A DNA stretch of 64,000 nt from Synergistota bacterium (GTDB taxonomy: Bacteria; Synergistota; GBS-1): the NCBI GenBank assembly GCA_021159885.1, contig JAGHDO010000057.1, positions 1,418-65,417 of the forward strand, read 5' to 3'. Made by a program: the position numbers and the translations under genes. The notes under the pieces are model-generated. The model was not told the origin of the DNA. It searched no databases and worked only from the letters and a program-made list of their open reading frames with translations. Below are positions 32,313 to 57,036 of the stretch, piece by piece (position 1 is the stretch's first letter; each line of letters opens with the position of its first letter).

Positions 32313-33425
32313 TTAGAAGACATCACCTCCTTTAAGTATTTTACCCTTGGAAATAACGCCCTTAAGATTAAATTCGTTGTCAAATACTAAAAGATCGGCA
32401 TCGGCTCCTTCCTCTATTCTACCTTTCATTTTCAAGCCTATTCTTTCAGCAGGGTTGGTTGAAAGAATTTTTAAGGCTTTTTCAAGGCCTATTAGCTCTT
32501 TCAATTTTAAAAATTCCTCAAATAGGGCTTTTGGAGAGGCTACAGCCATTTCAATTAGGTTGCCATTAGCGTCAAATCTTGGAAGGCTTCCACCAGAGTC
32601 CGAGCTTATTGTTATTTGGTCGAGTGAGGCTCCATTGTCAAGTAGGTATTTAACGCCATCCGCTGCTGAAAAATCCTTCGTGACTGCCGTTAGGTCAACG
32701 TATCCTCCTTCGAGACAGTATTTCAGTGCTTCTTTAAGGATTTCTTCGTCTCGATTCATATGGGTAGGGAGAAAGTGATACTTGGGTATATTGGTTCTCT
32801 TGAAAACCTCGCGTAGTATTCCCAGGGGATTGGGGAACTTGCCGGTATGAAGGTGAAGTATAGCTTTTTTCCCGCTGAGCATTCCAGCTACTCTTATCTC
32901 TGATGCTAACCTGATTAGCTCATCAACGGTTGGCCATGAAGAGCGATGATCTGAGATAGCCACTTCTCCTACTCCTATCACCTTTTCTATAGCTATTATA
33001 TCCATTGCCACGCTTCCGGTTATAGTCGGTGGAGGTATTTGATAAGAACCGCTGTATATGTATGTAGAAAGTCCCTGTAGCTCGAGGGCGTATGCCTTTT
33101 GAAGCAGCCCGAGCATGCTTCGCGTGTAACCGTCAGTTCCAAGTAAACCAATTGCTGTTGTTATGCCAGCGCTTATGATCTCGTCTATGGTAAGCTCCCT
33201 CGTTCTATTAATGGGGCTTCCCTCTCCGCCAGCTCCCGCGAAATGAACATGTAGGTCAACAAACCCCGGCGTTATGATGCTCTCGCCCAGATCAATGACT
33301 TTTATTTTAGGAATATTTACATCGATTTTTTCATCAATCCAATAGACTTTATCGAAGCTTATAAGAATATCCTTATTGCCCAGATCCTCGGGTGAGAATA
33401 CGCGCGCATTCTTGAGGAGTATCAA
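32313..33425 (-). CDS. iadA: Isoaspartyl dipeptidase (beta-aspartyl peptidase), amidohydrolase superfamily
   Basis: The 370-aa ORF has the metal-binding HVH signature (PGFVDLHVHF) and IadA-like length and motifs. Confidence 0.75.
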   Translation of the reverse strand: MILLKNARVFSPEDLGNKDILISFDKVYWIDEKIDVNIPKIKVIDLGESIITPGFVDLHVHFAGAGGEGSPINRTRELTIDEIISAGITTAIGLLGTDGYTRSMLGLLQKAYALELQGLSTYIYSGSYQIPPPTITGSVAMDIIAIEKVIGVGEVAISDHRSSWPTVDELIRLASEIRVAGMLSGKKAILHLHTGKFPNPLGILREVFKRTNIPKYHFLPTHMNRDEEILKEALKYCLEGGYVDLTAVTKDFSAADGVKYLLDNGASLDQITISSDSGGSLPRFDANGNLIEMAVASPKALFEEFLKLKELIGLEKALKILSTNPAERIGLKMKGRIEEGADADLLVFDNEFNLKGVISKGKILKGGDVF

Positions 33426-33442
33426 GTCTTATCCCTCCTTTT

Positions 33443-34423
33443 TCAAATCATGTGGCAAGCTACGAGATGACCATCGCTTACTCTTTTAAGGCTGGGTTCC
33501 TTTCTCCCACATATTTCCTTTGCTAAAGGACATCTCGTGTGGAATCTGCAACCGGGTGGGGGATTCATAGGACTTGGGACATCTCCTCTGATAATCTTTT
33601 CCTCTACGCTTTCCCTCGTAATAGCGGGTTTGGGTATGCTTTTTAAAAGAGCCTGTGTGTAAGGATGAAGGGGATTTTCAAAAAGGGTCTTCTTGGGAGC
33701 ATATTCAACTATTTTCCCAAGATACATTACTGCTATTTTATGACTCATGTGTCTGATAACGCTCAGGTCATGGGAGATAAATAAATAGGATAGCTTTCTA
33801 TCTATTTGAAGCTTCTTAAGAAGGTTCAGTATTTGAGCTTGAACGGAAACATCAAGAGCAGATGTCGGTTCGTCTAACACAATAAATTCAGGGTTACAGA
33901 TAAGAGCTCTTGCTATTGCTATTCTTTGACGCTGTCCTCCCGAAAACTCATGAGGGTATCGGGAAAGGTGCTCTTCCTTTAAGCCTACTTCCTCAAGAAG
34001 CTCTAATACTTTCTTCTCCATATCTCTGTCATTCTTTGCCAAACCGTGAACCTTAAGTGGCCTTCCAACTATATCCTTAACTATCATTCGTGGGTTGAGC
34101 GAGGAGAACGGGTCCTGAAATACTATTTGAGCCTTCTGTCGGAAAATCTTCAGCTCTTCGCCCGTTAGCTTTGATAATTCCTTTCCTTTGAATTCGATGC
34201 TTCCGCTTGTTGGGTTAAGGAGGCCTATTACGAGAAGGCCAGTGGTGGATTTTCCACTTCCTGATTCGCCAACGAGCCCCAGCGTTTCTCCCTGTTCTAT
34301 GGAAAAGGAGATGCCGTCTACCGCTCTCACATAGCCAACTATTTTGCTAAAAATTATCCCTTTATCTATTGGGAAGTGCTTCACCAAATTATCTACCCTT
34401 AATATCGTATTCATGGCAGGCAA
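33443..34423 (-). CDS. Peptide ABC transporter ATP-binding protein (DppF/OppF-like)
   Basis: The 326-aa ORF has a Walker A motif (GESGSGKST), the ABC signature LSGGQRQR and an Opp C-terminal extension. Confidence 0.9.
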   Translation of the reverse strand: MPAMNTILRVDNLVKHFPIDKGIIFSKIVGYVRAVDGISFSIEQGETLGLVGESGSGKSTTGLLVIGLLNPTSGSIEFKGKELSKLTGEELKIFRQKAQIVFQDPFSSLNPRMIVKDIVGRPLKVHGLAKNDRDMEKKVLELLEEVGLKEEHLSRYPHEFSGGQRQRIAIARALICNPEFIVLDEPTSALDVSVQAQILNLLKKLQIDRKLSYLFISHDLSVIRHMSHKIAVMYLGKIVEYAPKKTLFENPLHPYTQALLKSIPKPAITRESVEEKIIRGDVPSPMNPPPGCRFHTRCPLAKEICGRKEPSLKRVSDGHLVACHMI

Positions 34424-35369
34424 CTGTGTGTCCCCTTTCTACCTCAATAGGTTTTGGTTTTACCTTTTTGCATATATCCTTTGCAAGGGAACATCTGGGG
34501 TGAAACCTACATCCTGGCGGGGGATAGATCAGGTTGGGAACCGAGCCCGGAATGACTTCTAACCACTCCCTATCTTCATCCAAGCGGGGGATAGCGCCTA
34601 AGAGACCCTTGGTATAAGGGTGGAGGGGATTGTTGAATATGTCTTCTATGCTTCCGTACTCTACGATACTTCCAGCGTACATAACGCCCACTTTCTGGGC
34701 CATCGTAGCTATAACCCCAAGGTCATGGGATATTAGAAGAACGCTCGTTGAAAACTCTCTTTGAAGTCCCTTTATAAGTGAAAGTATTTGGGCTTGTATG
34801 GATACATCAAGAGCTGTAGTTGGCTCATCCGCTATAAGAAGCTTAGGACTCATTGAAAGCGCCATTGCTGTCATTACTCTTTGTCTCATGCCTCCGGAGA
34901 ACTGATGAGGATATCGTTCTATAGCTTGATCCACGTCTGGAATATTTACTTTTCTGAACATTTCTTTAACCCGGGCGATTCCCTCCTGAATTGAGATCTT
35001 AGCATGGGTTAAGATGGCTTCCAACACTTGGAAGCCCACTCTCAGGACGGGGTTAAGGCTGCTCATCGGATCCTGAAAGATCATGGCTATCTCTTTCCCT
35101 CTGAGCTTTCTCATTTCCTCCTCTGAAAGCTTGAGCAGGTCTTTACCTTCAAATAATATTCTTCCACCTATTATCTTTCCTGGAGGTGAGGGAATTAATC
35201 TTATTATGGATCTTGCGGTGACGGATTTGCCACACCCCGTCTCACCGACGAGTCCCATGATCTCTCCTCGGTTTATGGAGAAGCTAACGCCTTCAAGCGC
35301 TTTCACGACACCTTCTTCAGTATAAAAATATGTGGTGAGATTTTCCACTCTCAAGACTTCATCGCTCAT
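34389..35369 (-). CDS. Peptide ABC transporter ATP-binding protein (DppD/OppD-like)
   Basis: The 326-aa ORF has Walker A GETGCGKS and the signature FSGGMRQR. Confidence 0.9.
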   Translation of the reverse strand: MSDEVLRVENLTTYFYTEEGVVKALEGVSFSINRGEIMGLVGETGCGKSVTARSIIRLIPSPPGKIIGGRILFEGKDLLKLSEEEMRKLRGKEIAMIFQDPMSSLNPVLRVGFQVLEAILTHAKISIQEGIARVKEMFRKVNIPDVDQAIERYPHQFSGGMRQRVMTAMALSMSPKLLIADEPTTALDVSIQAQILSLIKGLQREFSTSVLLISHDLGVIATMAQKVGVMYAGSIVEYGSIEDIFNNPLHPYTKGLLGAIPRLDEDREWLEVIPGSVPNLIYPPPGCRFHPRCSLAKDICKKVKPKPIEVERGHTVACHEYDIKGR

Positions 35370-35376
35370 TTTTATA

Positions 35377-36228
35377 TCATTCCTTTAATCTCGGATTGAG
35401 GGCATCTTGGAGCCCATCTCCGAGAAGGTTAAATCCCAAAACGACAAACATTATTGCAAGTCCTGGGAGGACCGCTACTCTCGGAGCTATTCTAAGGTAC
35501 ATTCGTGCGTTGCTTAACATGGCACCCCATTCAGGCGTGGGGGGTTGGACTCCTAAACCGAGGAATCCCAATCCAGCTGCTGTTAAGAGAATGGTTGCCA
35601 TCCTGAGCGTTGTTTGAACTATTATAGGAGAGAGGGCATTGGGGAGAACATATAATCCTATTATAGAAAGATCGCTTTCTCCTATTGCCTTAGCTGCTTT
35701 TATATATTCGTTTTCCTTTATAGCTATAACTGCTCCTCTTGTAATCCTTGCAAATTGAGGGACAGAGTAGATTCCTATCGCTATTATTAGGTTTTTTAAG
35801 CTTGGGCCAAGAATACTTATTATCGCAAGTGCGAGAAGCATTCCGGGGAAAGCCAAAAGAATATCCATAAATCTCATTATGACTTCATCAAGCTTACCAC
35901 CATAGTATCCACCGATAGCTCCTAAGGCTACTCCTATTATCAGAGCTATAACTATTGAGCCAAGCTGGATGATAAGTGATATACGAGATCCATAAATTAT
36001 TCTGCTTAGGAGGTCTCTTCCAAACTCGTCGCAGCCGAAAGGATGCTCCCATGAAATTGGAGCAAAGCTCTTGCTTAGATCCTGCTTATAGGGGTCATAT
36101 GGCGCTATGTAGGGGCCTAATAGAGCCGTAAGGAGATAAAGCAATACTATAAAAAATCCCACGATCGCTATTTTATTTCTCTTGAATCTACGCCATACTA
36201 TCAAAAGATGCGTTCTGCGCTTATTCAT
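35377..36228 (-). CDS. Peptide ABC transporter permease (DppC-like)
   Basis: The 283-aa ORF is a BPD_transp_1 permease. Confidence 0.88.
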   Translation of the reverse strand: MNKRRTHLLIVWRRFKRNKIAIVGFFIVLLYLLTALLGPYIAPYDPYKQDLSKSFAPISWEHPFGCDEFGRDLLSRIIYGSRISLIIQLGSIVIALIIGVALGAIGGYYGGKLDEVIMRFMDILLAFPGMLLALAIISILGPSLKNLIIAIGIYSVPQFARITRGAVIAIKENEYIKAAKAIGESDLSIIGLYVLPNALSPIIVQTTLRMATILLTAAGLGFLGLGVQPPTPEWGAMLSNARMYLRIAPRVAVLPGLAIMFVVLGFNLLGDGLQDALNPRLKE

Positions 36229-37138
36229 ATCTTATCCTCGGATCAAGGAATGCATAAAGTATATCAACGGCTAAATTTACCAGAACGAAAATCATGGCTA
36301 TTATAAGTAAAGAGGCTTGAACCACTGGGAAGTCCCTTGCCAATATAGAATCTACCAGAAGCCTTCCTACGCCGGGCCAGGAGAAAACTGTTTCAGTTAG
36401 AACCGCTCCTGCAAGCATATATCCAAATTGCAGTCCAACTACCGTTACCGTCGGTATCAGAGCGTTTCTTAAAGCGTGTCGATATATAACTATCCTCTCT
36501 GGAAGTCCCTTTGCCCTTGCAGTGGTTATATAGTCTTGTCTCAAGACATCTAACATGCTTGATCGTGTCATGCGAGCTATTATGGCTGTGGACGCCGTTC
36601 CCAGAACGACGGCAGGTAGTATTATATGTCTGATACCGCCTATTCCTCCAGAGGGAAGTACTCCCAGCGTTACGGCAAAAAGGAGTATGAGTATAAGTCC
36701 CCACCAGAAAACTGGCATGGAAACGCCCATAAGGGCAGCTACCATACTTATATAATCTATCCAGGAATATCTATGGGTAGCGGAGAGAACCCCCGCTGGT
36801 ATACCTATTAGCACCGCTATTAGAATGCTTGCTAAGGAGAGCTTTATAGTATTTATAATTCTGGGCCACATTACTTGCATGACCGGCATCTCGAATTTAA
36901 GTGAGATGAGCTCTCCAGTGAAGATTCCCTTGATGAATCTAAAGTATTGAACGTAAAGAGGTTTATCCAACCCAAATTGCTGCCTTATGTGCATTATGTC
37001 CTCCTGTGTGGCTTCCTCTCCCGCGAGAAGCTCAGCAGGATCCCCGGGAGCCAGATGGAGTATGAGAAAGGCTATTATGGAAACGCCTATTAGAACGGGT
37101 ATTAGCAGGAAGAGCCTTCTTAATATGAATCTTCCCAT
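36221..37138 (-). CDS. Peptide ABC transporter permease (DppB-like)
   Basis: The 305-aa ORF is a permease with the conserved EAA-like loop. Confidence 0.88.
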   Translation of the reverse strand: MGRFILRRLFLLIPVLIGVSIIAFLILHLAPGDPAELLAGEEATQEDIMHIRQQFGLDKPLYVQYFRFIKGIFTGELISLKFEMPVMQVMWPRIINTIKLSLASILIAVLIGIPAGVLSATHRYSWIDYISMVAALMGVSMPVFWWGLILILLFAVTLGVLPSGGIGGIRHIILPAVVLGTASTAIIARMTRSSMLDVLRQDYITTARAKGLPERIVIYRHALRNALIPTVTVVGLQFGYMLAGAVLTETVFSWPGVGRLLVDSILARDFPVVQASLLIIAMIFVLVNLAVDILYAFLDPRIRYE

Positions 37139-37151
37139 AAGATCACTCCTC

Positions 37152-38315
37152 CTATGGCAGTAGCAAAGCTATAGTTGCATTTATTCCCATACCTATTTTA
37201 AGAGCTTCCTCATTTGGAGCGAATTTTGAGTTATGGAGTGGATAGCTTGGTCCTACTCCTATTCTATAGAAGGATCCTTTAGTTTTCCTGAGATAGTAGG
37301 CGAAGTCCTCTCCTCCCATCGAGGGATGCTCTATCTCTATAACATTTTCGTCTCCTAAGAAAATTTTTCCGGCTTGGGTAACCTTATCTGTTATCTCTGG
37401 ATCATTTATTACGGAGGGATAACCAAGCTCTATCTCAACCTGCGCTTTTGCTCTAAAGGTAGATGCTATTCCCTCGGCTACGCTTTTTAAGCGGTTTAAA
37501 GCCTTTTCTCTGTTTCTCTCCCCAAGCGTTCTAATGGTGCCTTCCATTATAGCTTCGCTTGGGATTACGTTCCCTGCTTTGCCTGCTCTGATGGATCCCA
37601 CGGTTATAACCGTGGGATCCATGGGGGATATTTCTCTTGCGAGAAGGGTATAAAGGCCAAGCGTTATATGAGAGGAAACAGCTACGGGATCGATTGTTTC
37701 CTCGGGCCTTGCACCGTGTCCTCCCGCTCCTTGAATGATTATTCTGAATGAGTCGGCGTTTGCCGTCATTACTCCTTTCCTATAACCGATTTTTCCGAAG
37801 GGGATGTTGGGGAAGAGATGCTGTCCGATGATGTATTCTATTCCAAACTTCTCTATTAAGCCGGCTTCAGTGAGTATTTTTCCTCCAAAGCCTCCTTCTT
37901 CTCCTGGTTGAAATACCAGAACGACTTTTCCCTTAAGGCTCTCCTTAAGCTCGCTTAGTATATACGCAAGTCCTATCAAAATCGCGGTGTGAAAATCATG
38001 TCCGCAGGCATGCATTACTCCATCTATCTTCGAACTATAGGGGAGCCCTGTTTCTTCCTTTATAGGTAGTGCGTCCATGTCTGCTCTGAATGCTCTTGTT
38101 GGACCATCTTTCTTTCCCTCAAGAATGCCTATTACAGCGGTAGTATCAGCGAAGCTGGATAGAGTTTGCCAACCGACTTTTTGAAGCTCTGAGGCTACAA
38201 TCTTTGAGGTTTCATACTCCTGAAGCCGTAGCTCTGGGTGTTCATGTATCTTTCTTCTCACTTCTACCACGTGGGGATAGATTTCATCGATCTTTTCTTT
38301 TATCCTTTCCATCAT
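37152..38315 (-). CDS. M20D-family amidohydrolase (N-acyl-amino-acid amidohydrolase/hippuricase-like)
   Basis: The 387-aa ORF has the HACGHD metal-binding motif. Confidence 0.85.
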   Translation of the reverse strand: MMERIKEKIDEIYPHVVEVRRKIHEHPELRLQEYETSKIVASELQKVGWQTLSSFADTTAVIGILEGKKDGPTRAFRADMDALPIKEETGLPYSSKIDGVMHACGHDFHTAILIGLAYILSELKESLKGKVVLVFQPGEEGGFGGKILTEAGLIEKFGIEYIIGQHLFPNIPFGKIGYRKGVMTANADSFRIIIQGAGGHGARPEETIDPVAVSSHITLGLYTLLAREISPMDPTVITVGSIRAGKAGNVIPSEAIMEGTIRTLGERNREKALNRLKSVAEGIASTFRAKAQVEIELGYPSVINDPEITDKVTQAGKIFLGDENVIEIEHPSMGGEDFAYYLRKTKGSFYRIGVGPSYPLHNSKFAPNEEALKIGMGINATIALLLP

Positions 38316-39021: not shown

Positions 39022-39097
39022 TGGCAGCCCCTGCGGGATTTGAACCCGCGTCGTCGGACTGAGAACCCGACATCCTAGGCCGCTAGACGAAGGGGCC
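39022..39097 (-). tRNA. tRNA-Glu (anticodon CUC)
   Basis: Reverse complement GGCCCCTTCGTCTAGCGGCCTAGGAT-GTCGGGTTCTCAGTCCGAC...GGGTTCAAATCCCGCAGGGGCTGCCA folds as a cloverleaf. The anticodon loop TTCTCAG gives CTC, and CCA is encoded. Confidence 0.85.
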
Positions 39098-39117
39098 ACC
39101 TCATTAGCTTTATTATA

Positions 39118-39192
39118 TGGCTGGGGAAGGAGGACTCGAACCTCCACGCCGGGATCCAGAGTCCCGTGTCCTGCCACTTAGACGATTCCCCA
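39118..39192 (-). tRNA. tRNA-Gln (anticodon CUG)
   Basis: Reverse complement TGGGGAATCGTCTAAGTGGCAGGACACGGGACTCTGGATCCCGGCGTGGAGGTTCGAGTCCTCCTTCCCCAGCCA. It has a U1-A72 pair, a G73 discriminator and anticodon loop CTCTGGA. Its acceptor arm and 3' end resemble E. coli tRNA-Gln. Confidence 0.85.
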
Positions 39193-40461
39193 GCGCCTTA
39201 TTCTTTCAATCGTTCTTTTCTTACCAAGAACTTCCATTACCTCAAATAGGGGAGGTGTTACCTTCTTTCCGCTAATTGCTACTCTTATAGCTTGGGCGAT
39301 ATACTTTAGCTTAATGCCCTTCTTCTCGGCGAAAGCTCGTAAACAAACCTCTATATTTTTAGCTTCAAAAGATTTTATACTTTCTAATTCCTCTGCTACC
39401 TCCCTCAGGAGATCTTCCTTACCTCTGATCTCCTGCTCCACGAGCATTTTATCATAAGTCGGTTCCTTTTTCAAGAAGTAATCGCTAAAATCAGCAAGCT
39501 CTACTAAGGTTTTGCATCTTTCTTTTATCAAATCTATTATCTTCATAAGATAACCCTTATCGAGCTCTTCATCTTTGCTGATCCATCCTCTTTCTTCCCA
39601 GAATGGCAGAACAAGATCGTAAAGCTTATCAGCTGGGGTTTTCCTTATATATTGTGCGTTCATCCATTCGAGCTTTTTCATATCGAATACAGCTCCTCTT
39701 TTTATGACCCTTTCTAAGGAGAATAACTCTATAAGTTCTTCTCGCGAGAAAATTTCTCTATCTAATCCCGGATTCCATCCAAGCAAGGCAAGGTAATTAA
39801 AGAAAGCGTCCGATAGGAAACCAAGCTTTCTATATTCTGCCACAGAGGTAGCGCCATGTCTCTTGCTTAGCTTTGATTTATCAGGTCCAAGAATCATGGG
39901 AAGATGAGCAAATTGTGGGAGCTCCCATCCGAGAGCTTGGTATAAAAGGATCTGCTTGGGAGTATTGGCTATGTGATCTTCTCCTCTTATGACATGTGTT
40001 ACTCCCATTTCATGGTCATCTACTACGACAGCGAAGTTGTAAGTTGGAGTTCCATCGGATTTTATCATTACGATGTCCTTAAGTGTTTCGTTCTTGATGG
40101 TGATCTTTCCCCAGACTATATCATCCAGTGTGGTTTTGCCTTCTGGAATTTTGAATATTAGTGCGCCATTTTCCTCGTAGCCCTTTCCCTCAGAGACGAG
40201 TTTTTCCGCATATTTTCTGTATATATCCAGCCTTTCACTTTGCCTATGAGGGCCCTCATCCCAGGTAAGCCCAAGCCAGGTCAAGCCCTCCAAAATGGTT
40301 TCTTCCGCTTCTTTTGTTGATCTTAGTCTATCACTATCCTCTATACGCAAAATAAAAATGCCCTTTTTATTTCGGGCGAATAGCCAATTAAAGAGAGCCG
40401 TTCTCGCTCCTCCGACATGAAGGGCCCCCGTGGGGCTGGGAGCGAACCTGACTCTGACCAC
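39178..40461 (-). CDS. gltX: Glutamate--tRNA ligase
   Basis: The 427-aa ORF has HIGH-type (SPTGALHVGGARTA) and KMSKS-type (KLSKRHG) motifs. Its stop lies ~15 nt inside the predicted tRNA-Gln 5' end. Confidence 0.9.
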   Translation of the reverse strand: MVRVRFAPSPTGALHVGGARTALFNWLFARNKKGIFILRIEDSDRLRSTKEAEETILEGLTWLGLTWDEGPHRQSERLDIYRKYAEKLVSEGKGYEENGALIFKIPEGKTTLDDIVWGKITIKNETLKDIVMIKSDGTPTYNFAVVVDDHEMGVTHVIRGEDHIANTPKQILLYQALGWELPQFAHLPMILGPDKSKLSKRHGATSVAEYRKLGFLSDAFFNYLALLGWNPGLDREIFSREELIELFSLERVIKRGAVFDMKKLEWMNAQYIRKTPADKLYDLVLPFWEERGWISKDEELDKGYLMKIIDLIKERCKTLVELADFSDYFLKKEPTYDKMLVEQEIRGKEDLLREVAEELESIKSFEAKNIEVCLRAFAEKKGIKLKYIAQAIRVAISGKKVTPPLFEVMEVLGKKRTIERIRRWGIV

Positions 40462-40805: not shown

Positions 40806-40904
40806 TTTTTCACCCCTTATCTTTTAAAGACTTTTAAAGATTATAAAACCATCTTTATGATAAAATCAAGTCTGTGGAACGAAAATTTTAAGGAGGTTTT
40901 GTCT

Positions 40905-42188
40905 ATGTCCCTTAAGGGTATGGTTGAGAATATAGTGGGCACGGATAATGTGAGGGAGCTGGAAGGTGGAGGAGTGCTTGTTGAACCTGAAACGATAGAT
41001 GAGATCAGAAATATCATCAAAGTTGCAGCTGAGAAGGGTTATAAAATCTTTCCTCGCGGATCGGGAACGGATGTGGAAGGTAAGATTAATAGTGATATAG
41101 TACTTTCCACTTTAAAGTTACGAAAGATCCTCAGAGTGGATGAGACAAACATGCTTATTGAGGTTGAGGCAGGTACGATAGTAAGCGATCTTATCTCTGC
41201 TCTTGTTAAAGCGGATCTATTTCTTCCGTGTAGTCCAACGAGTGCTGGATTCTCTACGATAGGAGGAAGTATCGCTACTAACGCTGTTGGTTTAAGAGCC
41301 TTAAAACACAGGTTTATGGGAGGATATGTTGTTGGAATAGAGGTTGTGCTTCCAGATGGAGAAACGGCAGCCCTCGGGTATCGTGATCTGGGGCGAATGG
41401 CCTGTGGGATAGAGAAGCTCTTTGTGGGGACAAGAGGTGCTTTTGGAATTATTTCAAAGGTTTGTCTTAAGGTTGTTCGTAAACCCTTATTTATTAGAAC
41501 GTTAGTCATAGCTTTTGAGGATATCTTAAGCGCTGGGCGGGTCGCTCTTAATATTGTGTCTACTGGCATAATGCCGTTTAGCTTGGAACTCCTTGATTCG
41601 AATAGTCTTGATATTGTTGGAGGGAGCTTCGATTTTCCCCGGGGAAGTGGAGCTATCTTAATTGTTGAAACGGAGGGATTTCCAGATGCGGCTATAATGG
41701 ACGCTAAGAGAATTATGAAAATGGGCGAAGATGGTGGGGCTCTTTATCTTAAAGTCTTGGAGAATTTGGAAGAGTGGCACCACATATGGAAGCTCAGAAG
41801 AGGAATTTTCAGATCTGTAGTGTATTCCCAAACTCCTTTTTTGTTTGAGAACGTGGTCGTGCCACGTTCCTCTTTAATAAGCCTATGTGAGGGAATTATA
41901 GGTATTCTTCGTAAAACCGGAGCTAAGAGCACTGTTTTTGGACATATTGGGGATGGAAACTTGCATATCTGCTTTTTAGAAGGGAGCGCTGAGCAAATTT
42001 CTCAAGCTTCTAAGGAGCTTCACGCCTTAGTAAAGCGTCTTAATGGGACAGTGTTGAGAAGAAGAGGAAGGTTGATTGGAAGGGCGACCCTTTTGCAAGA
42101 TGACGATCGAGCGCAAATAATGAGACGTCTTAAAGACGCTTTGGATCCTAAGGGCGTTATAAGCTCTGAGCCTGTATTTATGTTATAA
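40905..42188 (+). CDS. FAD-linked oxidase (GlcD-family paralog)
   Basis: An FAD_binding_4 domain is present. Start is placed at ATG 40905, 8 nt after the AAGGAGG RBS; the ORF track starts further upstream at 40857 in the same frame. Confidence 0.75.
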   Translation: MSLKGMVENIVGTDNVRELEGGGVLVEPETIDEIRNIIKVAAEKGYKIFPRGSGTDVEGKINSDIVLSTLKLRKILRVDETNMLIEVEAGTIVSDLISALVKADLFLPCSPTSAGFSTIGGSIATNAVGLRALKHRFMGGYVVGIEVVLPDGETAALGYRDLGRMACGIEKLFVGTRGAFGIISKVCLKVVRKPLFIRTLVIAFEDILSAGRVALNIVSTGIMPFSLELLDSNSLDIVGGSFDFPRGSGAILIVETEGFPDAAIMDAKRIMKMGEDGGALYLKVLENLEEWHHIWKLRRGIFRSVVYSQTPFLFENVVVPRSSLISLCEGIIGILRKTGAKSTVFGHIGDGNLHICFLEGSAEQISQASKELHALVKRLNGTVLRRRGRLIGRATLLQDDDRAQIMRRLKDALDPKGVISSEPVFML

Positions 42189-42209
42189 TCCTTCTTGAGG
42201 TGATGCCAA

Positions 42210-42830
42210 ATGAAAAGGATAATTTTAATAGTTGTGTGCGTTTTACTGGTTGTATTTGCTGCTTTGCCTGCTATTGGACAGCAGACGGGCAGCTCATCGG
42301 ACATCGAAAAGCTCGTTACAGAGCGTTATTTCGAGGGAGCGTATAACTACTATCAGGAGGGGCAATATGATATGGCCATCAAATACTACAATATTGTCTT
42401 AAGCAGAGATCCAAACCATGCAAAGGCTCTTTATTGGCTTGCAAGGCTTTATCAGGAACTTGGTTTATTTAAGCAGGCACTTGCAACTTGGCAGAGATTG
42501 CTTGTGGTGCAGCCCGATAATAAAATAGCTAAGTATTTTGCGAAGAAATGCAAGGGAATAATAAAGCATGGTGAGGAAGCCTATGATACTTATGAGCGCG
42601 CTTACGATGTTTACTTGAGGGGGAATAAGGAAAGAGCGTTAAGACTTTATGAAAAAGTTTGTGCATTAAGTCCGACTTTTGAGAAGGCCTTCCTGTGGGC
42701 CGGTAGAGTTTCCTTCGAGCTGGGTTATTACGATAAGGCGGAGTGGTATTTACAGAGAGCGTTGAATCTCGATCCGAAGGACAAGATAGCCAAATATCTG
42801 CTTAATCAGGTGAGAAAAGCTAAAAAATGA
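42210..42830 (+). CDS. Secreted TPR-repeat protein
   Basis: The 206-aa ORF has a signal peptide (MKRIILIVVCVLLVVFAALPAIGQ) followed by three or four TPR-like repeats. Its stop overlaps the next gene's start (ATGA). Confidence 0.75.
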   Translation: MKRIILIVVCVLLVVFAALPAIGQQTGSSSDIEKLVTERYFEGAYNYYQEGQYDMAIKYYNIVLSRDPNHAKALYWLARLYQELGLFKQALATWQRLLVVQPDNKIAKYFAKKCKGIIKHGEEAYDTYERAYDVYLRGNKERALRLYEKVCALSPTFEKAFLWAGRVSFELGYYDKAEWYLQRALNLDPKDKIAKYLLNQVRKAKK

Positions 42831-43582
42831 GGGGAGAACACCTGCTAAGACTTTTGTCGTTCTTAGCATTTGGGATAGTGATGGTTGCGGTTACTGCTTC
42901 TGCTTTTTCACTTCCTCTTCCCCCTTCGAATCTCGAGGCGGAAATAGTTTCTCCAACTCATATTAGACTTACTTGGTGGGATAATTCTACGGATGAAGAT
43001 GGATTCTTAATAGAGAGGAAAACATCTTCAAGTAGCTGGAAGCAAATGGGTTATACACCTCCTGATGTTAATGTTTATAACGATGAGGGCTTAACCCCTG
43101 GGGAAACATATTATTACAGGATAAGAGCTTATGAGGATACCTATTATACCGATTATTGTGAGCTCTCTCAGCCTGTGACTACCATAGGCTTTCCTGATCC
43201 GCCAACTGATCTCAGTGGTAAGGCACTTTCTTCCTCGGAAATAGAGCTTACTTGGGAAGATAGATCTGATAATGAGCTTGGTTTTATAGTCGAGAGAAAA
43301 TGGGGAAGAAACTGGATAGAGGTTGATGTACTTCCTCCCAATATGGAAAGTTTCATCGATACAGGACTCTCGGAATATACGAAATATACCTATAGGGTTT
43401 TGGCTTTCAATCAAGCGGGGAGAACTTCGTCAAATGAGGTGGAGGTCAGAACGCTTCCATCAGGAGGGGAGGTTATCTTAAGCGCTGGCTGTGCGCTTGG
43501 CGAGGGTAGTCTCGGGGTGGTACTTCTGTTTCCGATTATAGCTTTAGCTACTATTAGCTTGGGGAGATGGATCAAAAGATGA
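42827..43582 (+). CDS. Surface protein with two fibronectin type III domains and a Cys-containing C-terminal sorting-type tail
   Basis: The 251-aa ORF has a signal peptide and two FN3 repeats (LTWWDNSTDEDGFLIERK; ELTWEDRSDNELGFIVERK). The tail is SGGEVILSAGCALGEGSLGVVLLFPIIALATISLGRWIKR, a motif followed by a transmembrane helix and basic C-terminal residues. Confidence 0.75.
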   Translation: MRGEHLLRLLSFLAFGIVMVAVTASAFSLPLPPSNLEAEIVSPTHIRLTWWDNSTDEDGFLIERKTSSSSWKQMGYTPPDVNVYNDEGLTPGETYYYRIRAYEDTYYTDYCELSQPVTTIGFPDPPTDLSGKALSSSEIELTWEDRSDNELGFIVERKWGRNWIEVDVLPPNMESFIDTGLSEYTKYTYRVLAFNQAGRTSSNEVEVRTLPSGGEVILSAGCALGEGSLGVVLLFPIIALATISLGRWIKR

Positions 43583-45492
43583 GGTTGTTTTTAGCTATAC
43601 TCTTTTTGTTTATTATGACCAGTGCTGCGGTTGCAGATACATGGACCGTCATGATATATATGAATGCTGATAATAACTTGGAAGAGTATGCTATTTCCGA
43701 TTTTCTTGAGATGACCTCTGCTCCTCTTGGAGAGAATTCTAATCTTACGTTGGTCGTTCAATTTGATAGGGTTCCGGGATATGCGACCTCGGGTGATAAT
43801 TATGACGATTGGACGGGAACGTACAGGTTCGTTTTAACGCAAGGTATGACTCCTTTTTCTACTAATGCTGTTTCCTTTTTAGGGGAGGTAAACATGGGTT
43901 GTTCAGAAGCCCTTATAGACTTCGTTTCATGGGCTGAAGATAATTACCCTGCAGATCACTATGCTCTCGTACTTTGGAATCATGGAGATGGTTGGAGAGC
44001 AAGGAATCTTAGGGTTTCGTGGAAAAGCGCTGGGTACGATGAAACGAGCGACGATTATCTTTATATAGATGAGCTTCAAACCGCTCTCAGGATATTAAAA
44101 AATAGAGGTTATGAGATAGATCTTATTGGATTTGATGAGTGTCTAATGGCGATGGTTGAGGTTGCCTACGAGATTAGAAACTACGCTTCTTTTATGGTGG
44201 CCTCGGAGGAGGTGGAACCAGGAGAGGGATGGAAGTACGACGTTTTCTTAGCTGATCTCGCTAATGCGCTTGATAGTGGGGTAAGCGTTTCTCCCGAATA
44301 TCTGGGCAAGATGATAATAAATAGCTATATGGAGACGAGTGGAGCTACGCTTTCTCTTATAGATCTTGGAAGGATGGACGATATAGCTTCTCTCCTCAAG
44401 GAGCTTTCTTCTGCTCTGATAGAAAAGGTCCCGCTTGCAAGAGTTTCAAGGGCAAAGGCGACTTCCTTTTACCTCCCATCTGTGATAGATCTTTACTCTT
44501 TTTGTGCCTTTCTTGCTGGTTGGAGAACATCTGTTTCAGAACTTGCCTCTTCCTTATGCGATGCGATTAAAAGTGCCGTCCGAGAAAATTATTCAGCTTA
44601 TGGAAATGCTAATGGATTGAGCATATTTTTCCCAGATAGAGGAGAGGGGTCTTATGATAGATTTTATGATGATGGGAGACATGATTTTGCGAATTTCACG
44701 GGATGGGGAGACTTCTTGAAAGCCTATCTTAAAGAAACAAGAGATGTGGAAGAAATTAAGTGGGGGGACATGGAAATAGATGGAGTTTTGAGCGATTCTG
44801 ACATAGCAGGAGCTCTTGTTCTGCCTCCAGAGGACCTTTCAACTTCAGCCACGTCCTCGATTTCTGTTTATTTAAAGAACGATCAGGAATATCTTTATAT
44901 AGGTATCAGGAGCTATAATGACGAGAGCCTTGATATAGGAGATTCTCTGATAGTTTATCTTGATTCTAACGATGATGGTTCCTTTCCTTCAACGAGAGAC
45001 ACTGATGAAGGGGAGCTTAGGGTATTTTACGATGGGAGTCAATGGGTGGCTTACTTTTATCCGTTATGGTATGACTATTCTCAATATAGAGTTAGATCTC
45101 TCGATGCGGTTTTCTGTCCTGAGGTTGAAGCGGAAGGGGAATTAAGCGAGGATGGCTTCCTTGAGATGGAGGTAAAGATACCTCTGGGTACAGGAAGATT
45201 TCCTTTTAAGGCGGGATCTGAGATAGGATATTATCTCCAGGTCTATGACGGTGGAGAGGATGCGTTTGTTGGAGAATATCCCTTCCTTAACTTTTCTGAT
45301 ACTGCAAGCCTTGAGCCTTTAATGTATGGAGCTCTGAAGCTTGAGAAAAGCGGTGGTGGAGGAGGCGGCGGAGACGAGTTTATCGCATCGGCTGGTTGCT
45401 CGTCTGTTGAAGGAGGAAGCTTCCTTTACTTTGCTCCAATGCTTGTGGGATGGCTTCTGATACTGGAGGTGAGAAAAAAGTGGGAAGATTAA
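43567..45492 (+). CDS. Clostripain-family (MEROPS C11) cysteine peptidase with a C-terminal beta-rich domain, Gly7 linker and the same C-terminal tail
   Basis: The 641-aa ORF has a signal peptide and the C11 hallmark TWTVMIYMNADNNLE. A His/Cys dyad context is present (LWNHGDGW; IGFDECLMA). The tail is SGGGGGGGDEFIASAGCSSVEGGSFLYFAPMLVGWLLILEVRKKWED. Confidence 0.8.
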   Translation: MDQKMRLFLAILFLFIMTSAAVADTWTVMIYMNADNNLEEYAISDFLEMTSAPLGENSNLTLVVQFDRVPGYATSGDNYDDWTGTYRFVLTQGMTPFSTNAVSFLGEVNMGCSEALIDFVSWAEDNYPADHYALVLWNHGDGWRARNLRVSWKSAGYDETSDDYLYIDELQTALRILKNRGYEIDLIGFDECLMAMVEVAYEIRNYASFMVASEEVEPGEGWKYDVFLADLANALDSGVSVSPEYLGKMIINSYMETSGATLSLIDLGRMDDIASLLKELSSALIEKVPLARVSRAKATSFYLPSVIDLYSFCAFLAGWRTSVSELASSLCDAIKSAVRENYSAYGNANGLSIFFPDRGEGSYDRFYDDGRHDFANFTGWGDFLKAYLKETRDVEEIKWGDMEIDGVLSDSDIAGALVLPPEDLSTSATSSISVYLKNDQEYLYIGIRSYNDESLDIGDSLIVYLDSNDDGSFPSTRDTDEGELRVFYDGSQWVAYFYPLWYDYSQYRVRSLDAVFCPEVEAEGELSEDGFLEMEVKIPLGTGRFPFKAGSEIGYYLQVYDGGEDAFVGEYPFLNFSDTASLEPLMYGALKLEKSGGGGGGGDEFIASAGCSSVEGGSFLYFAPMLVGWLLILEVRKKWED

Positions 45493-46607
45493 GATCACTT
45501 ATCTTTATTTTCATCGCTCTTCTTTCTTTATCAACGCTATTATGCGGTTGTGGAGAGGGAGGAGGAAGTCCGTCAAGTCATATGCCTAAATGGACGATAA
45601 TGGTCTTCATGAACGATGCTACTTTAGCCTCTCGAGAATTAGCAGGTATAGATCTCTATGAGATGAGGCAAATAGGCTCAACGGATGATGTTAAAATACT
45701 TGTGCAACGCTGTTCTGAAACCGGCAGTGGAATGGTTCGCTATCTTGTCGAGAAGGGGAATATGGAACTTCTTGGGACTCTTTCGGATGCTTCACCTACC
45801 TCTTCAGATGCTCTTGCGTCTTTTGCTAATTGGTGCTTTGAAAACTATCCGGCTGAAAAATATCTCTTGATTCTTTGGAGTAGGGATGAGGATAACTCGT
45901 GGGATGGTTTAGTTAGCTGCCTTAATCTTTCTAAGGCTCTTTCTTCCTTTACGGAGAATGTAGATCTGCTCGTTTTAGACTCATCGGTTAAAGCAGAGCT
46001 TGAGCTTTTGGATGAGCTTAAGGGAAATGTGTCTGTAGTTGTGGCTCTTCAGGGTGCCATGCCCGATGATGGCTTTAACTATGAGAATATCTTTCAGAAA
46101 GTAGTTGCAAATCCTCATCATACCGCATTGGAAGTTTCGGGAAGTTTCGTTGAAGATTTTAAAAATCTCTATCAGGGGAGAAACGATGTGGCGATATCGG
46201 TTATCGATATAGCTAAGGTAGCGGATGTTGTAGGCTATCTTAATGACCTTGGTAGTGATCTTCTTAACTTTTCGGATACTTCTGCTCTCTGGGGGATTGT
46301 TCTTCAAACACAGTCTTATTTCATAACGCCTGGTGAGGAGGCTTCTTTCAGAGATCTTTATGATTTTTGCGAGAGGCTCGGAGCTTTGGATTTAAGCGAT
46401 TCTACCAAGGAGACGATAGAGAATCTAAAAAAATCGATAGAGGATATGGTCAAAAATGAATGGCATGTCTCAGATGGTATAGTTTCTGGATCTCGCGGCG
46501 TTTCACTCTATATATATACTCTTGGAAGTAGGGAAAGCGCCTATAGCGGTTTCACGATAGCTACGGATGCCTCAGATTGGTATGAGTTTGTTAAATCAAG
46601 ATTTTAA
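45480..46607 (+). CDS. Catalytically inactive C11-peptidase paralog with a lipoprotein-type signal
   Basis: Start is a GTG 8 nt after a GGAGGTGA RBS. The signal VGRLRSLIFIFIALLSLSTLLCGC is followed by KWTIMVFMND, which is homologous to the active paralog. The His position reads LWSRDED and the Cys position reads LDSS, so both catalytic residues are replaced. Confidence 0.7.
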   Translation: MGRLRSLIFIFIALLSLSTLLCGCGEGGGSPSSHMPKWTIMVFMNDATLASRELAGIDLYEMRQIGSTDDVKILVQRCSETGSGMVRYLVEKGNMELLGTLSDASPTSSDALASFANWCFENYPAEKYLLILWSRDEDNSWDGLVSCLNLSKALSSFTENVDLLVLDSSVKAELELLDELKGNVSVVVALQGAMPDDGFNYENIFQKVVANPHHTALEVSGSFVEDFKNLYQGRNDVAISVIDIAKVADVVGYLNDLGSDLLNFSDTSALWGIVLQTQSYFITPGEEASFRDLYDFCERLGALDLSDSTKETIENLKKSIEDMVKNEWHVSDGIVSGSRGVSLYIYTLGSRESAYSGFTIATDASDWYEFVKSRF

Positions 46608-52397: not shown

Positions 52398-52487
52398 GGT
52401 GAGGTGGCCGAGTAGGTCGAAGGCGCTCGCCTGCTAAGCGAGTAGAGGTAACTCCTCTCGAGGGTTCGAATCCCTCCCTCACCGCCA
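52398..52487 (+). tRNA. tRNA-Ser (anticodon GCU)
   Basis: GGTGAGGTGGCCGAG...CTGCTAA...long variable arm...GGGTTCGAATCCCTCCCTCACCGCCA. The 5' and 3' ends resemble E. coli tRNA-Ser(GCU). Confidence 0.9.
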
Positions 52488-52496
52488 TTAGGATGC

Positions 52497-52573
52497 GCGC
52501 CCGTAGCTCAACTGGATAGAGCGGTGGACTACGGATCCACTGGTTGGGGGTTCAAGTCCTCTCGGGCGCGCCA
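52497..52573 (+). tRNA. tRNA-Arg (anticodon ACG)
   Basis: GCGCCCGTAGCTCAACTGGATAGAGC-GGTGGACTACGGATCCAC...CGGGCGCGCCA. The anticodon loop CTACGGA gives ACG. Confidence 0.9.
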
Positions 52574-52587
52574 CTTAATTTAGGAAA

Positions 52588-53052
52588 ATGGATGTCTTAA
52601 ATATAGACGAGTACTTTATGAGAATTGCGCTTGAGGAAGCGAGAAAAGCGGCAGATGAGGATGAGGTTCCAGTAGGAGCGGTTGGAGTTATAGGAGATGA
52701 GATTGTAGCCAGAGCTCACAATAGGCGAGAGCAGTTGCAGGATCCCTTAGCGCATGCTGAGCTTTTTGTGATAAGGGAAGCTGCTTTAAGGCTAAGAAGC
52801 TGGCGTTTGGTTGACCTTGTTATTTATGTTACGCTTGAACCTTGTCCAATGTGTGCGGGTGCGATGGTTCAGGCGAGGATAAAGCGTCTGGTATATGGAT
52901 TGGCGGATCCTCGTTCTGGAGCTGCAGGAAGCGTTATGAATATACTTCAACATGAGAGCCTGAATCACTCCGTTGAGGTAAAAGGAGGGATTCTGGCGGA
53001 GGAAAGCAGGGAGCTTTTAAGGGCTTTTTTCTCCAGAAAAAGGAATAAGTAG
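52588..53052 (+). CDS. tadA: tRNA-specific adenosine deaminase
   Basis: The 154-aa ORF has the CDA-fold motifs HAELFVIREA and PCPMCAGA. Confidence 0.9.
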   Translation: MDVLNIDEYFMRIALEEARKAADEDEVPVGAVGVIGDEIVARAHNRREQLQDPLAHAELFVIREAALRLRSWRLVDLVIYVTLEPCPMCAGAMVQARIKRLVYGLADPRSGAAGSVMNILQHESLNHSVEVKGGILAEESRELLRAFFSRKRNK

Positions 53053-53054
53053 GC

Positions 53055-53146
53055 GGAGAGATGGCCGAGGGGTCGAAGGCGCTCGATTCGAAATCGAGCA
53101 GGCGGTTGATCCCGCCTCGCGAGTTCGAATCTCGCTCTCTCCGCCA
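53055..53146 (+). tRNA. tRNA-Ser (anticodon CGA)
   Basis: GGAGAGATGGCCGAG...CTCGATTCGAAATCGAG...GAGTTCGAATCTCGCTCTCTCCGCCA. It has a long variable arm and anticodon CGA. Confidence 0.88.
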
Positions 53147-53161
53147 TGTAGGAATAAGAGC

Positions 53162-53253
53162 GGAGAGGTGGCTGAGCGGTCGAAGGCGCTCGCCTGGAGA
53201 GCGAGTGGGCGGTTGATCCCGCCCCGGGGGTTCAAATCCCTCCCTCTCCGCCA
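53162..53253 (+). tRNA. tRNA-Ser (anticodon GGA)
   Basis: GGAGAGGTGGCTGAGCGG...CTCGCCTGGAGAGCGAG...GGGGGTTCAAATCCCTCCCTCTCCGCCA. Anticodon is GGA. Confidence 0.88.
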
Positions 53254-53268
53254 TTTAGTTTAGGAAAA

Positions 53269-53550
53269 AGCCGTGGTCGTGCTAGACGGGGAGGTAGCGG
53301 TGCCCTGAACCCGCAATCCGCTATAGCGGGGTTGAATTCCTATCAGAGGTTTCCTCTCATGGGAGCTGTCTCAGGTTGAAGGCGATGAAGGCTGGGTCCC
53401 GTGCGGCAGAGAGCCGTGAACCCCGCCAGGCCCGGAAGGGAGCAACGGTAAGCGGTATTCTCTGGGTGCCACGGGGGTGCTTGGCTGGAGCTGGAGGCCC
53501 GAGAAACGTCCTGGGGGAGGAAATCGACGATAGGTGCACGGCCACGGTTT
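53269..53550 (+). ncRNA. ffs: Signal recognition particle RNA, long (Bacillus-type, Alu-domain-containing) form
   Basis: A terminal helix pairs GCCGTGGTCGTGC (5') with GCACGGCCACGGT (3'). An internal domain-IV consensus CAGGCCCGGAAGGGAGCAAC resembles E. coli CAGGUCCGGAAGGAAGCAGC. A T-run follows the 3' end. Confidence 0.8.
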
Positions 53551-56349: not shown

Positions 56350-57033
56350 ATGTTTTTCTTCTGGGATTGGACTTTCCTGCTATTAATTCCTGCACTTCTC
56401 TTGGCTGTTTACGCTCAAGCGAAGGTCCAATCCACCTATAGAAAATATGCTGCCGTTCCAGCTGCCGTAAGAAAACCAGCATGGATGGTAGCTCGTGAGA
56501 TCTTAGATAGAAACGGTTTGGGACATGTGGCTATAGAGATGATACCCGGAGAGCTTACGGATCACTATGATCCTCGGGCTAAGGTTTTAAGATTGTCGTC
56601 AGCGGTTTACAATAACCCATCAATAGCTGCTATAGGTATAGCTGCTCATGAAGCCGGTCATGCACTTCAACACGCTACAGGTTATCTTCCCCTTTCGATA
56701 AGAAACGCCATAGTTCCAGTGGCAAATATAGGGTCTCAACTTGCTATACCTTTCTTCTTCTTGGGATTTCTCTTTGGTATTCCAAGTCTTATGGATATAG
56801 GCATAGTTGCGTTTTCCGCTGCCGTTGTTTTCCAGCTTATAACTCTTCCGGTTGAATTCGATGCAAGCTCGAGGGCTATAAGGGTTCTTTACACGGGGGG
56901 ATTTGTTTCAAATAGAGAGAAAAAGGCAGTTGAGGAGGTTCTTGGAGCTGCTGCGTTAACCTATGTTGCTGCTACTGCTATGGCAGCGCTTCAGCTTATA
57001 AGGTTGCTTATTCTGAGGGGGGAGAGGGATTAA
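56350..57033 (+). CDS. YugP-family putative neutral zinc metallopeptidase (membrane)
   Basis: The 227-aa ORF has an HEAGHALQH (HExxH) motif and a typical YugP N-terminus (LLLIPALLLAVYAQAKV). Confidence 0.8.
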   Translation: MFFFWDWTFLLLIPALLLAVYAQAKVQSTYRKYAAVPAAVRKPAWMVAREILDRNGLGHVAIEMIPGELTDHYDPRAKVLRLSSAVYNNPSIAAIGIAAHEAGHALQHATGYLPLSIRNAIVPVANIGSQLAIPFFFLGFLFGIPSLMDIGIVAFSAAVVFQLITLPVEFDASSRAIRVLYTGGFVSNREKKAVEEVLGAAALTYVAATAMAALQLIRLLILRGERD

Positions 57034-57036
57034 AGG

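Follow-up and report, generated by a model that had tools for sequence, protein, structure and literature searches.

A conserved four-gene block pairs an active C11 peptidase with a catalytically dead, lipoprotein-like paralog in a thermophilic Synergistota lineage

Introduction

Clostripain and its relatives PmC11, thetapain/iotapain, distapain, and fragipain constitute the C11 family of cysteine peptidases (MEROPS, clan CD), in which an Asp in the S1 pocket sets specificity for Arg or Lys and a loop serves autoprocessing, both as described in the study of PmC11 (PMC4850288). The present study concerns a 64-kb stretch of DNA from a Synergistota bacterium (contig JAGHDO010000057.1 of assembly GCA_021159885.1; the whole stretch is hereafter the window), in which an active C11 peptidase (gene 3) and a degenerate C11 paralog (gene 4) are encoded together with a TPR protein (gene 1) and an FN3 protein (gene 2). 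We interpret this quartet, with a probability of about 0.55, as encoding a protease complex tethered to the cell envelope in a Synergistota lineage that is thermophilic and ferments peptides, and not as a new protein-sorting machine.

The products of genes 2 and 3 end in a Cys-containing tail, and the closest described systems in this respect are the Cys-dependent C-terminal sorting signals. Four Cys-containing tripartite signals have been described, including Synerg-CTERM in the Synergistales, for which the prediction is that the Cys is modified first, that CPBP/Rce1-like “myxosortases” then cut, and that type II secretion delivers the proteins to the surface (Haft preprint, bioRxiv 10.1101/2023.06.07.544157). 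For MYXO-CTERM, Guo, Haft, and Wall have shown cleavage by MrtX experimentally and proposed Lgt as the lipidating enzyme, although MYXO-CTERM has no defined lipobox (PMC11980579). In Synerg-CTERM the Cys adjoins the helix without a spacer and a helix Pro is invariant, while JDVT-CTERM is recognized by a DP motif nine residues after the Cys and by an adjacent gene for the protease MrtJ; more generally, signals cut by intramembrane proteases lack a spacer, which is typical where the active site lies outside the membrane, and low-copy sorting signals are usually encoded beside their enzyme (bioRxiv 10.1101/2023.06.07.544157). The same concept, a secreted protease held at the surface by a cleavable C-terminal tripartite signal, is represented in Vibrio cholerae by VesB with its GlyGly-CTERM signal, rhombosortase, and type II secretion system. 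Unlike gene 3, however, VesB belongs to the serine proteases, carries a GlyGly motif, and relies on a rhomboid-family enzyme for processing, and the two share no homology.

Conservation and Organization of the Quartet

In every contig recovered from relatives, the quartet has the same gene order, overlapping or abutting junctions, and the same chromosomal site, flanked by a dksA-type zinc-finger gene and gltX on one side and by the homoserine dehydrogenase gene (hom) and an NTPase gene on the other. The four genes thus form a conserved unit, as a preliminary description of the locus had supposed. The quartet proteins are 54-85% identical among relatives (63-85% for gene 1 orthologs, 81% and 57-60% for those of gene 3, and 81% and 53-59% for those of gene 4), and the ratio of nonsynonymous to synonymous substitution rates (dN/dS) of all four genes is ~0.1 or less, or else synonymous sites are saturated. 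All recovered relatives belong to one thermophilic Synergistota lineage (the “GBS-1” group), several of them coming, according to their sample names, from 77 °C cellulolytic enrichment metagenomes. NCBI lists GBS-1 as an unclassified bacterium; we take it to be a class of Synergistota in GTDB. Orthologs of genes 3 and 4 were found only in related metagenome-assembled genomes (MAGs) and in hot-spring or thermophilic metagenomes. When one genome per GTDB species was considered, an ortholog of the dead paralog occurred in only two species, “bacterium GBS-1” and DJKA70_ANT-KO_bin.39, and the next matches in that set, at most 30% identical over the best segment, were generic C11 genes. Likewise, a dead-C11 profile run against 1.84 billion 50%-identity representatives returned one cluster at 707 bits, with the next match at 247 bits. 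Exact look-ups of the gene 3 product retrieved no entry, and literature searches on the GBS-1 lineage and on clostripain in Synergistetes found nothing relevant. To the extent covered by these searches, neither the combination of the four genes nor the tail variant nor the pseudo-C11 family has been described, and no described system matches the quartet. Each of its elements is nevertheless of a known kind: C11 peptidase, CBM9-like module, Cys-type sorting tail, lipoprotein, and clan CD pseudo-enzyme.

The six-frame list of open reading frames (ORFs) places the four genes in the same orientation on the plus strand between positions 42210 and 46607 (Table 1), and it and the junction sequences agree with the overlaps noted at the outset: an ATGA between genes 1 and 2, 16 nt between genes 2 and 3, and 13 nt between genes 3 and 4. 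The 16-nt overlap assumes that gene 3 starts at 43567; a start at the ATG at 43579 would create a second ATGA overlap, and this start is used in the public record P0001 (637 aa, identical to the gene 3 product, annotated as a hypothetical protein of a Synergistetes/Synergistota MAG). Gene 4 starts at the GTG at 45480, with GGAGGTGA seven bases before it, an ideal spacing. Overlapping junctions are commonplace in the window and no mark of a special block, as ~47% of co-directional neighboring ORF pairs overlap when longest-ORF starts are used. No terminator-like sites were found between the four genes. An extended −10-like box, TGTTATAAT, precedes the TPR gene, and an alignment of the window with four relatives (L091, L001, L006, and L008) shows a TG[TC]TATAAT box ~20 nt upstream of this gene in each; from its sequence, TGTTATAAT is likely the operon promoter. 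At the other end, hom begins 24 nt past the end of gene 4, so that transcripts may extend into hom and the NTPase gene. In the window genome only, a glcD-like gene for an FAD-linked oxidase has been inserted between dksA and the TPR gene, dividing a spacer that is conserved elsewhere. Of the spacer, the left half survives 5′ of the oxidase gene, and TGTTATAAT survives as well, now overlapping the oxidase stop codon.

The block had also been described as AT-richer than its surroundings, which is numerically correct (42.7% GC versus 44.3% for the window) and trivial in extent: the 1.6-point difference places it at the 4th percentile of equal-length sliding windows, within their range. Third codon positions are slightly GC-poor in three genes of the quartet, and the codon-adaptation index, calculated with the 54 other genes of the window as reference, is average to slightly above for all four (z −0.04 to +1.7). 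Composition and codon usage are therefore essentially indistinguishable from the background and give no sign of foreign origin. The island-like impression was not sustained, and an origin as a genomic island was rejected because codon usage is normal and synteny with gltX, dksA, and hom is conserved. More broadly, one could point to the lower GC content, and to the occurrence of TPR and caspase-like protease pairs in defense systems, as grounds for viewing the block as a horizontally acquired island or a defense-type caspase-like system. This view is effectively refuted by the synteny kept in all relatives together with the normal codon usage; all four products, moreover, carry export signals, and PADLOC returned no defense-system match save one trivial TPR match.

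An Active C11 Peptidase with a CBM9-Like Domain

Gene 3 matches Pfam Peptidase_C11 (PF03415) with 185.9 bits against a gathering threshold of 25.8 (E = 2e-54), carries a signal peptide by inspection, and has an intact His/Cys dyad. With the clostripain family it has in common the fold signature and the dyad, an S1 Asp that precedes the Cys by two residues, and, at the position used for autoprocessing, a basic loop. The S1 Asp and the basic activation loop match the C11 mechanism (PMC4850288) and support an autoactivating endopeptidase specific for Arg or Lys, which is the best reading of the sequence. The enzyme is not a clostripain ortholog, since it scores 94.1 bits against the clostripain equivalog model TIGR02806, whose cutoff is 550 (gene 4 scores 28.1 bits), and it differs from family members in its added CBM9-like domain and its Cys-type membrane tail.

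The preliminary description had assigned gene 3 an extra C-terminal domain, and this can now be given an identity. The 210 residues that follow the C11 domain match no Pfam domain, so that structure prediction was needed; the predicted fold is a β-sandwich of the DOMON superfamily, and a profile of the domain also matches CBM9 xylanase modules (E ~3e-5). By fold and profile similarity the domain is thus classed as CBM9-like, a fold that is common to DOMON-type heme and ligand domains. Unlike CBM9-2 of Thermotoga maritima Xyn10A, it sits on a protease and not on a glycoside hydrolase. Such a fold invites the suggestion that the quartet is mainly an adhesion device, its FN3 and CBM9-like domains binding plant or microbial polysaccharide in cellulolytic hot-spring consortia and its protease processing or releasing the adhesin. 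The cellulolytic enrichments from which several relatives came would suit this suggestion, as would the frequency of FN3 modules in glycoside hydrolase systems (there is a weak match to CbhB). Yet the Trp of a D-E-W motif at the start of the CBM9-like domain, present in distant homologs, has been lost in the GBS-1 clade, and neither the operon nor its flanks contain a glycoside hydrolase; adhesion as the principal function appears decidedly unlikely.

A Catalytically Dead, Lipoprotein-Like C11 Paralog

Gene 4 also belongs to Peptidase_C11 (91.2 bits, E = 1e-25) and is 24% identical to the C11 domain of gene 3 over 359 residues. However, the whole segment from the His to the activation loop is deleted or replaced, and LDSS stands in place of FDEC. 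In an alignment of the domain with its 150 nearest representatives, the positions of His and Cys are occupied in gene 4 by Glu and Ser, respectively. Among its seven orthologs, five keep a His (in ERDHSDIW), while the Cys is replaced by Ser in all but P0122, which has Pro. By sequence, gene 4 therefore lacks the His/Cys dyad and is a catalytically dead C11. It begins with an L-x-G-C lipobox in which G23, C24, and G25 are invariant in seven orthologs, followed by a Gly-rich linker, and the invariant Cys and the linker indicate a lipoprotein; the window also contains a gene for LspA (Peptidase_A8). A weak NCBIfam “invert_tail” match on gene 4 was dismissed as merely its lipoprotein signal peptide. 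The AlphaFold2 model of gene 4 (pLDDT 84) returns the C11 fold, the top Foldseek matches being clostripain (9cip; E = 4e-17, TM 0.70) and Bacteroidales C11 structures. These results uphold the original view of gene 4 as a lipoprotein-like paralog lacking both catalytic residues: it retains the clostripain fold but differs from family members in having no dyad and no activation loop and in being a lipoprotein. The public labels of its orthologs KUK14170.1 and MCX8127881.1, “Peptidase C11 clostripain” or “clostripain-related cysteine peptidase,” are misleading in that they imply an active clostripain.

Loss of the dyad does not reflect decay. Against the closest relative, dN/dS is ~0.08 for gene 4 and ~0.06 for gene 3, values that are approximate because synonymous sites are near saturation, and the protein identity of gene 4 tracks that of gene 3 in all comparisons, indicating the same rate of divergence. 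Judged by these sequence comparisons, gene 4 is under purifying selection. In tandem C11 proteins from other metagenomes (P0009, P0137, P0140, and P0142), too, one domain is canonical His/Cys and another is His/Ser, His/Asp, or Asp/Pro, and the His/Ser combination occurs in 11 of 180 C11 domains examined. Canonical-plus-degenerate C11 pairs are thus not unique to the GBS-1 clade, and degenerate partners may be a recurrent theme; a one-to-one orthology between gene 4 and the Cys-to-Ser domains of the tandem proteins was considered and rejected. Dead partners of active clan CD proteases are also familiar from eukaryotes, where cFLIP accompanies caspase-8 and the lipidated pseudopeptidase MCA4 of Trypanosoma brucei is processed by MCA3. 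As in the quartet, a dead paralog is conserved alongside an active protease, and MCA4 is lipid-anchored as well, but these proteins belong to another family (C14), and the partnership of genes 3 and 4 is putative.

A Shared Cys-Type C-Terminal Tail

The two remaining products are a TPR protein and an FN3 protein, both with N-terminal signal peptides by inspection, and hidden Markov model searches agree with their earlier description as a secreted TPR protein and a two-FN3 protein. Gene 1 matches Pfam TPR_2/TPR_19 and related families (E down to 3e-19) and no NCBIfam model at cutoff, with weak BamD, PilW, and PrsT-like matches; the prediction from its sequence is a soluble partner, either periplasmic or secreted. 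Gene 2 has two fn3 stretches (E = 1e-15), a short linker, and a Cys-type C-terminal tail. An extracytoplasmic or envelope location is thus supported for all four products, as had been expected.

The tail of gene 2 is shared with gene 3. In both, S-[AS]-G-C is followed by a short spacer and then by a transmembrane helix and basic residues, and among all ORFs of the window only these two combine the Cys motif with a hydrophobic helix and a basic end. In the 11 tails of both families, the S, G, and C of the consensus E-phi-phi-x-S-[AS]-G-C-[AST] are invariant in 11 of 11, while the preceding linker and the helix vary. The shared sorting-type tail that had been noted is therefore conserved in the orthologs of both the FN3 protein and the peptidase, and the gene 3 family does not consist of ordinary secreted clostripains. 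The tails fit the generic Cys-type tripartite signal, with an exported protein, an invariant Cys motif, a transmembrane helix, and a basic C terminus, and they share with the MYXO-, JDVT-, and Synerg-CTERM signals a Gly/Ser-rich lead-in as well. Against JDVT-CTERM (NF033191, cutoff 27), the tail of one orthologous FN3 protein (from L006) reaches 27.1 bits and that of one C11 ortholog (from L001) 16.7 bits, while the window tails have no match. The best score against MYXO-CTERM (TIGR03901, cutoff 20) is 13.3 bits, below cutoff, for the FN3 tail of L001. Against Synerg-CTERM (TIGR04564, cutoff 22.5), orthologous tails score at most 7.7 bits and the window tails do not match. The tripartite architecture together with these subthreshold-to-threshold matches supports Cys-dependent sorting.

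The tails nevertheless differ from each of these signals. A spacer with charged residues separates Cys and helix, the helix Pro of Synerg-CTERM is absent from most C11 ortholog tails, no tail has the DP motif of JDVT-CTERM, and small, lipobox-like residues precede the Cys. There is likewise no adjacent MrtJ/CPBP gene in the window or in the relatives' flanks. The Synerg-CTERM/MrtS system is predicted in the same phylum, Synergistota, but the host lineage here lies outside the Synergistales. When 5.8 billion proteins were searched with a profile built from the 11 tails, no match appeared at E ≤ 10, such a profile being too short for a database of this size, and scanning metagenomes for the tail pattern recovered the C11 orthologs and nothing else.

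Is the Peptidase Cargo or a Sorting Enzyme?

In the preliminary description the quartet was likened to a dedicated surface-display or processing apparatus akin to sortase or PorU pairs. The finding that the peptidase itself carries the tail does not bear this out, and the sortase analogy is further weakened by an S1 Asp that implies Arg/Lys specificity, at odds with a tail motif of small residues, and by the cleavage of Cys tails by CPBP-family myxosortases, shown for MYXO-CTERM (PMC11980579) and predicted for the others. The type IX secretion analogy was rejected outright: each tail is one hydrophobic helix with a basic end and not a β-sandwich C-terminal domain, and no type IX secretion model gave a match at cutoff.

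Distant homologs that combine C11 and CBM9-like domains (35-39% identity) are informative in this regard. One ends in CFI-box-CTERM, and in others a choice-of-anchor U or D domain precedes a different Cys-containing tail; none has FN3, TPR, or dead-C11 neighbors. An ectodomain that swaps anchors between lineages behaves as anchored cargo, and the resemblance of the tail to myxosortase-type signals, combined with these differently anchored homologs, makes the gene 3 peptidase look, as far as sequence can tell, like cargo and not a sortase. In addition, an Arg/Lys-type S1 pocket and the lack of a conserved basic residue in the motif make gene 3 unlikely as the tail-cutting enzyme. A pseudopilin-like gene (158 aa; N_methyl, with a faint T2SSJ match) lies directly upstream of the C11-CBM9-Ig homologs P0011 and P0012 on two different contigs (L009, 6511-6987; L094, 320-796). 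This neighbor hints at a link of the C11-CBM9 homologs to type II secretion.

The opposite possibility is that the C11/pseudo-C11 pair is itself a dedicated sorting enzyme, a membrane-tethered clan CD endopeptidase or transpeptidase that cuts S-[AS]-G-C tails outside the membrane and that, as a heterodimer resembling PorU or the glycosylphosphatidylinositol (GPI) transamidase, moves the FN3 protein and itself onto a lipid or a cell-surface polymer. PorU and GPI8 belong to clan CD, as does gene 3, both act on C-terminal signals, and GPI8 is tethered by a C-terminal helix, as gene 3 is predicted to be; the substrates of PorU, however, bear a folded β-sandwich C-terminal domain, whereas the tails of genes 2 and 3 are a helix. 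Several features of the quartet are compatible with such an enzyme. The tails have a hydrophilic spacer before the helix, as do signals cut outside the membrane, and their small residues, spacer, and hydrophobic end recall GPI-attachment signals. Low-copy signals tend to adjoin the gene of their enzyme, the C11 paralogs are the only protease-fold genes of the operon, and no CPBP gene lies nearby. Nevertheless, the S1 Asp specifies Arg or Lys and no conserved basic residue occurs in or beside the motif, the motif of the supposed substrate is also present in the peptidase itself, homologs that share the architecture have unrelated anchors and neither FN3 nor pseudo-C11 neighbors, and no C11 enzyme is known as a sortase. 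We therefore regard this possibility as highly improbable; were it true, it would be the first sortase-like role of a C11 peptidase.

Neighboring Features

The sequence around the quartet contains further features (Table 1). A peptide-uptake cluster on the minus strand, common to the window and its closest relative (L091) and not to more distant relatives, encodes a family-5 solute-binding protein, an amidohydrolase, an M20 peptidase, two oligopeptide-type ABC ATPases, and two permeases. Directly downstream of gltX lie genes for tRNA-Gln(CTG) and tRNA-Glu(CTC), with the last 15 nt of the gltX ORF overlapping the 5′ end of tRNA-Gln; the two tRNAs may be substrates of the glutamyl-tRNA synthetase that gltX encodes. 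Farther along, four tRNA genes (Ser-GCT, Arg-ACG, Ser-CGA, and Ser-GGA) and a large bacterial signal recognition particle (SRP) RNA account for a GC peak at 53-54 kb. GC skew flips its sign with the coding strand throughout the window, at about +0.2 to +0.3 on the sense strand, so that coding strands are strongly richer in G than in C. A membrane Zn_peptidase_2 gene, located after the POR genes in the relatives L001 and L002 as well, is succeeded by a gene for a four-helix DUF6391 membrane protein.

Table 1. Positions in the window of the quartet, its sequence features, and neighboring genes
Feature	Position	Strand	Details
Gene 1, TPR protein	42210-42830	+	206 aa
Gene 2, two-FN3 protein	42827-43582	+	251 aa
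Gene 3, C11 peptidase	43579-45492	+	637 aa; 641 aa if ATG 43567 is used
Gene 4, lipoprotein pseudo-C11	45480-46607	+	375 aa; longest ORF opens at 45450
Extended −10-like box	42181-42189	+	TGTTATAAT; 20 nt before the TPR start codon
Gene 2 tail, Cys222	43490-43492	+	LSAGC; tail conserved in 5 orthologs
Gene 2 tail, transmembrane helix	43511-43561	+	Basic end
Gene 3 His135	43981-43983	+	NHGDGW; aligned to clostripain PDB 9cip (NHG motif)
Gene 3 basic loop	43993-44025	+	WRARNLRVSWK; after His, at C11 autoprocessing position
Gene 3 Asp186	44134-44136	+	S1 Asp position; two residues before Cys188
Gene 3 Cys188	44140-44142	+	FDECLM; aligns with clostripain DAC motif
Gene 3 CBM9-like domain	44737-45375	+	DOMON-superfamily β-sandwich (predicted)
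Gene 3 Gly-rich linker and tail	45376-45489	+	SAGC with Cys607 at 45397-45399; spacer SSVEGGS
Gene 3 tail, transmembrane helix	45421-45471	+	Basic end RKKWED
Gene 4 lipobox Cys24	45549-45551	+	
Gene 4 His-loop replacement	45876-45902	+	WSRDEDNSW
Gene 4 Asp167	45978-45980	+	S1 Asp retained; invariant in orthologs
Gene 4 Ser169	45984-45986	+	At Cys position
LspA gene	27317-27781		Peptidase_A8
Peptide-uptake cluster	30669-38315	−	
tRNA-Gln(CTG) and tRNA-Glu(CTC)	39022-39192	−	
gltX	39178-40461	−	
glcD-like oxidase gene	40857-42188	+	
Four tRNA genes and SRP RNA	52398-53541	+	
SRP RNA	53277-53541	+	188.7 bits
Zn_peptidase_2 and DUF6391 genes	56350-57726	+	

Discussion

The reading that we favor, an envelope-tethered protease complex, entails the following sequence of events. 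All four products would be exported by Sec, and the gene 3 enzyme would autoactivate in its basic loop and cleave after Arg or Lys. The products of genes 3 and 2 would at first be held in the cytoplasmic membrane by their C-terminal helix, and their S-[AS]-G-C tails would then be processed by the general Cys-dependent C-terminal sorting route of the cell. By analogy with MYXO-CTERM, this would involve lipidation of the Cys and cleavage by a CPBP/myxosortase-type intramembrane protease encoded elsewhere, followed by probable export to the surface via a type II secretion system, such that the proteins end lipid-tethered on the envelope. The N-terminally lipid-anchored pseudo-C11, which keeps the S1 Asp and cannot hydrolyze, would be a noncatalytic partner of the gene 3 enzyme, regulating it, serving as its scaffold, or binding basic peptides. 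The TPR protein would act as a periplasmic assembly or chaperone factor, and the CBM9-like domain may dock the enzyme on glycan. Synergistota have a peptide-fermenting lifestyle, and the DNA 4-11 kb upstream of the quartet encodes an amidohydrolase and an M20 peptidase besides a peptide ABC transporter; a nutritional role would fit both, on circumstantial grounds.

Several observations weigh against parts of this reading. The two tails of the window match no NCBIfam sorting-signal model, and the 6-8 residues, often with a charged one among them, that separate the Cys from the helix set the tails apart from signals cut within the membrane. No gene for a CPBP protease or a type II secretion system is present in the 64-kb window or in the ~20-kb flanks of the relatives, and if the products of genes 2 and 3 are the sole clients bearing the tail, a dedicated enzyme would be expected nearby. 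The peptide-transporter neighborhood is common only to the closest relative, and the physical complex of the four products is putative.

The lack of a model match for the window tails, and of a sorting enzyme gene in the window or the relatives' flanks, would also be expected if the tails were plain, unprocessed anchors that kept the products of genes 2 and 3 in the cytoplasmic membrane on its periplasmic side, where, along with the pseudo-C11 and the TPR protein, they matured or turned over specific envelope proteins. TPR proteins are common as periplasmic assembly factors, and the BamD, PilW, and PrsT-like similarities of gene 1, weak as they are, would accord with such a role. A mere anchor, however, would not be expected to keep S, G, and C invariant in two families while linker and helix vary. 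Moreover, one orthologous tail reaches the JDVT-CTERM cutoff, and C11-CBM9 homologs elsewhere carry recognized surface anchors. We thus consider plain anchoring unlikely and retain the lipid-tethered protease complex as the preferred interpretation.

The organisms concerned are uncultivated, and the findings do not overturn current understanding. They do, however, bring together features that are poorly charted, namely a bacterial clan CD enzyme accompanied by a conserved pseudo-protease partner with a lipid anchor, and a thermophile's protease with a CBM9-like module attached, and the gene 3 enzyme is a possible source of a thermostable protease specific for Arg or Lys. The tail represents a Cys-type sorting signal that is missed by current models, and its lipobox-like S-[AS]-G-C bears on the question of Lgt lipidation of myxosortase substrates (PMC11980579). 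With two tail-bearing clients in one operon and a clear readout, the quartet may offer a compact test system for Cys-dependent sorting.

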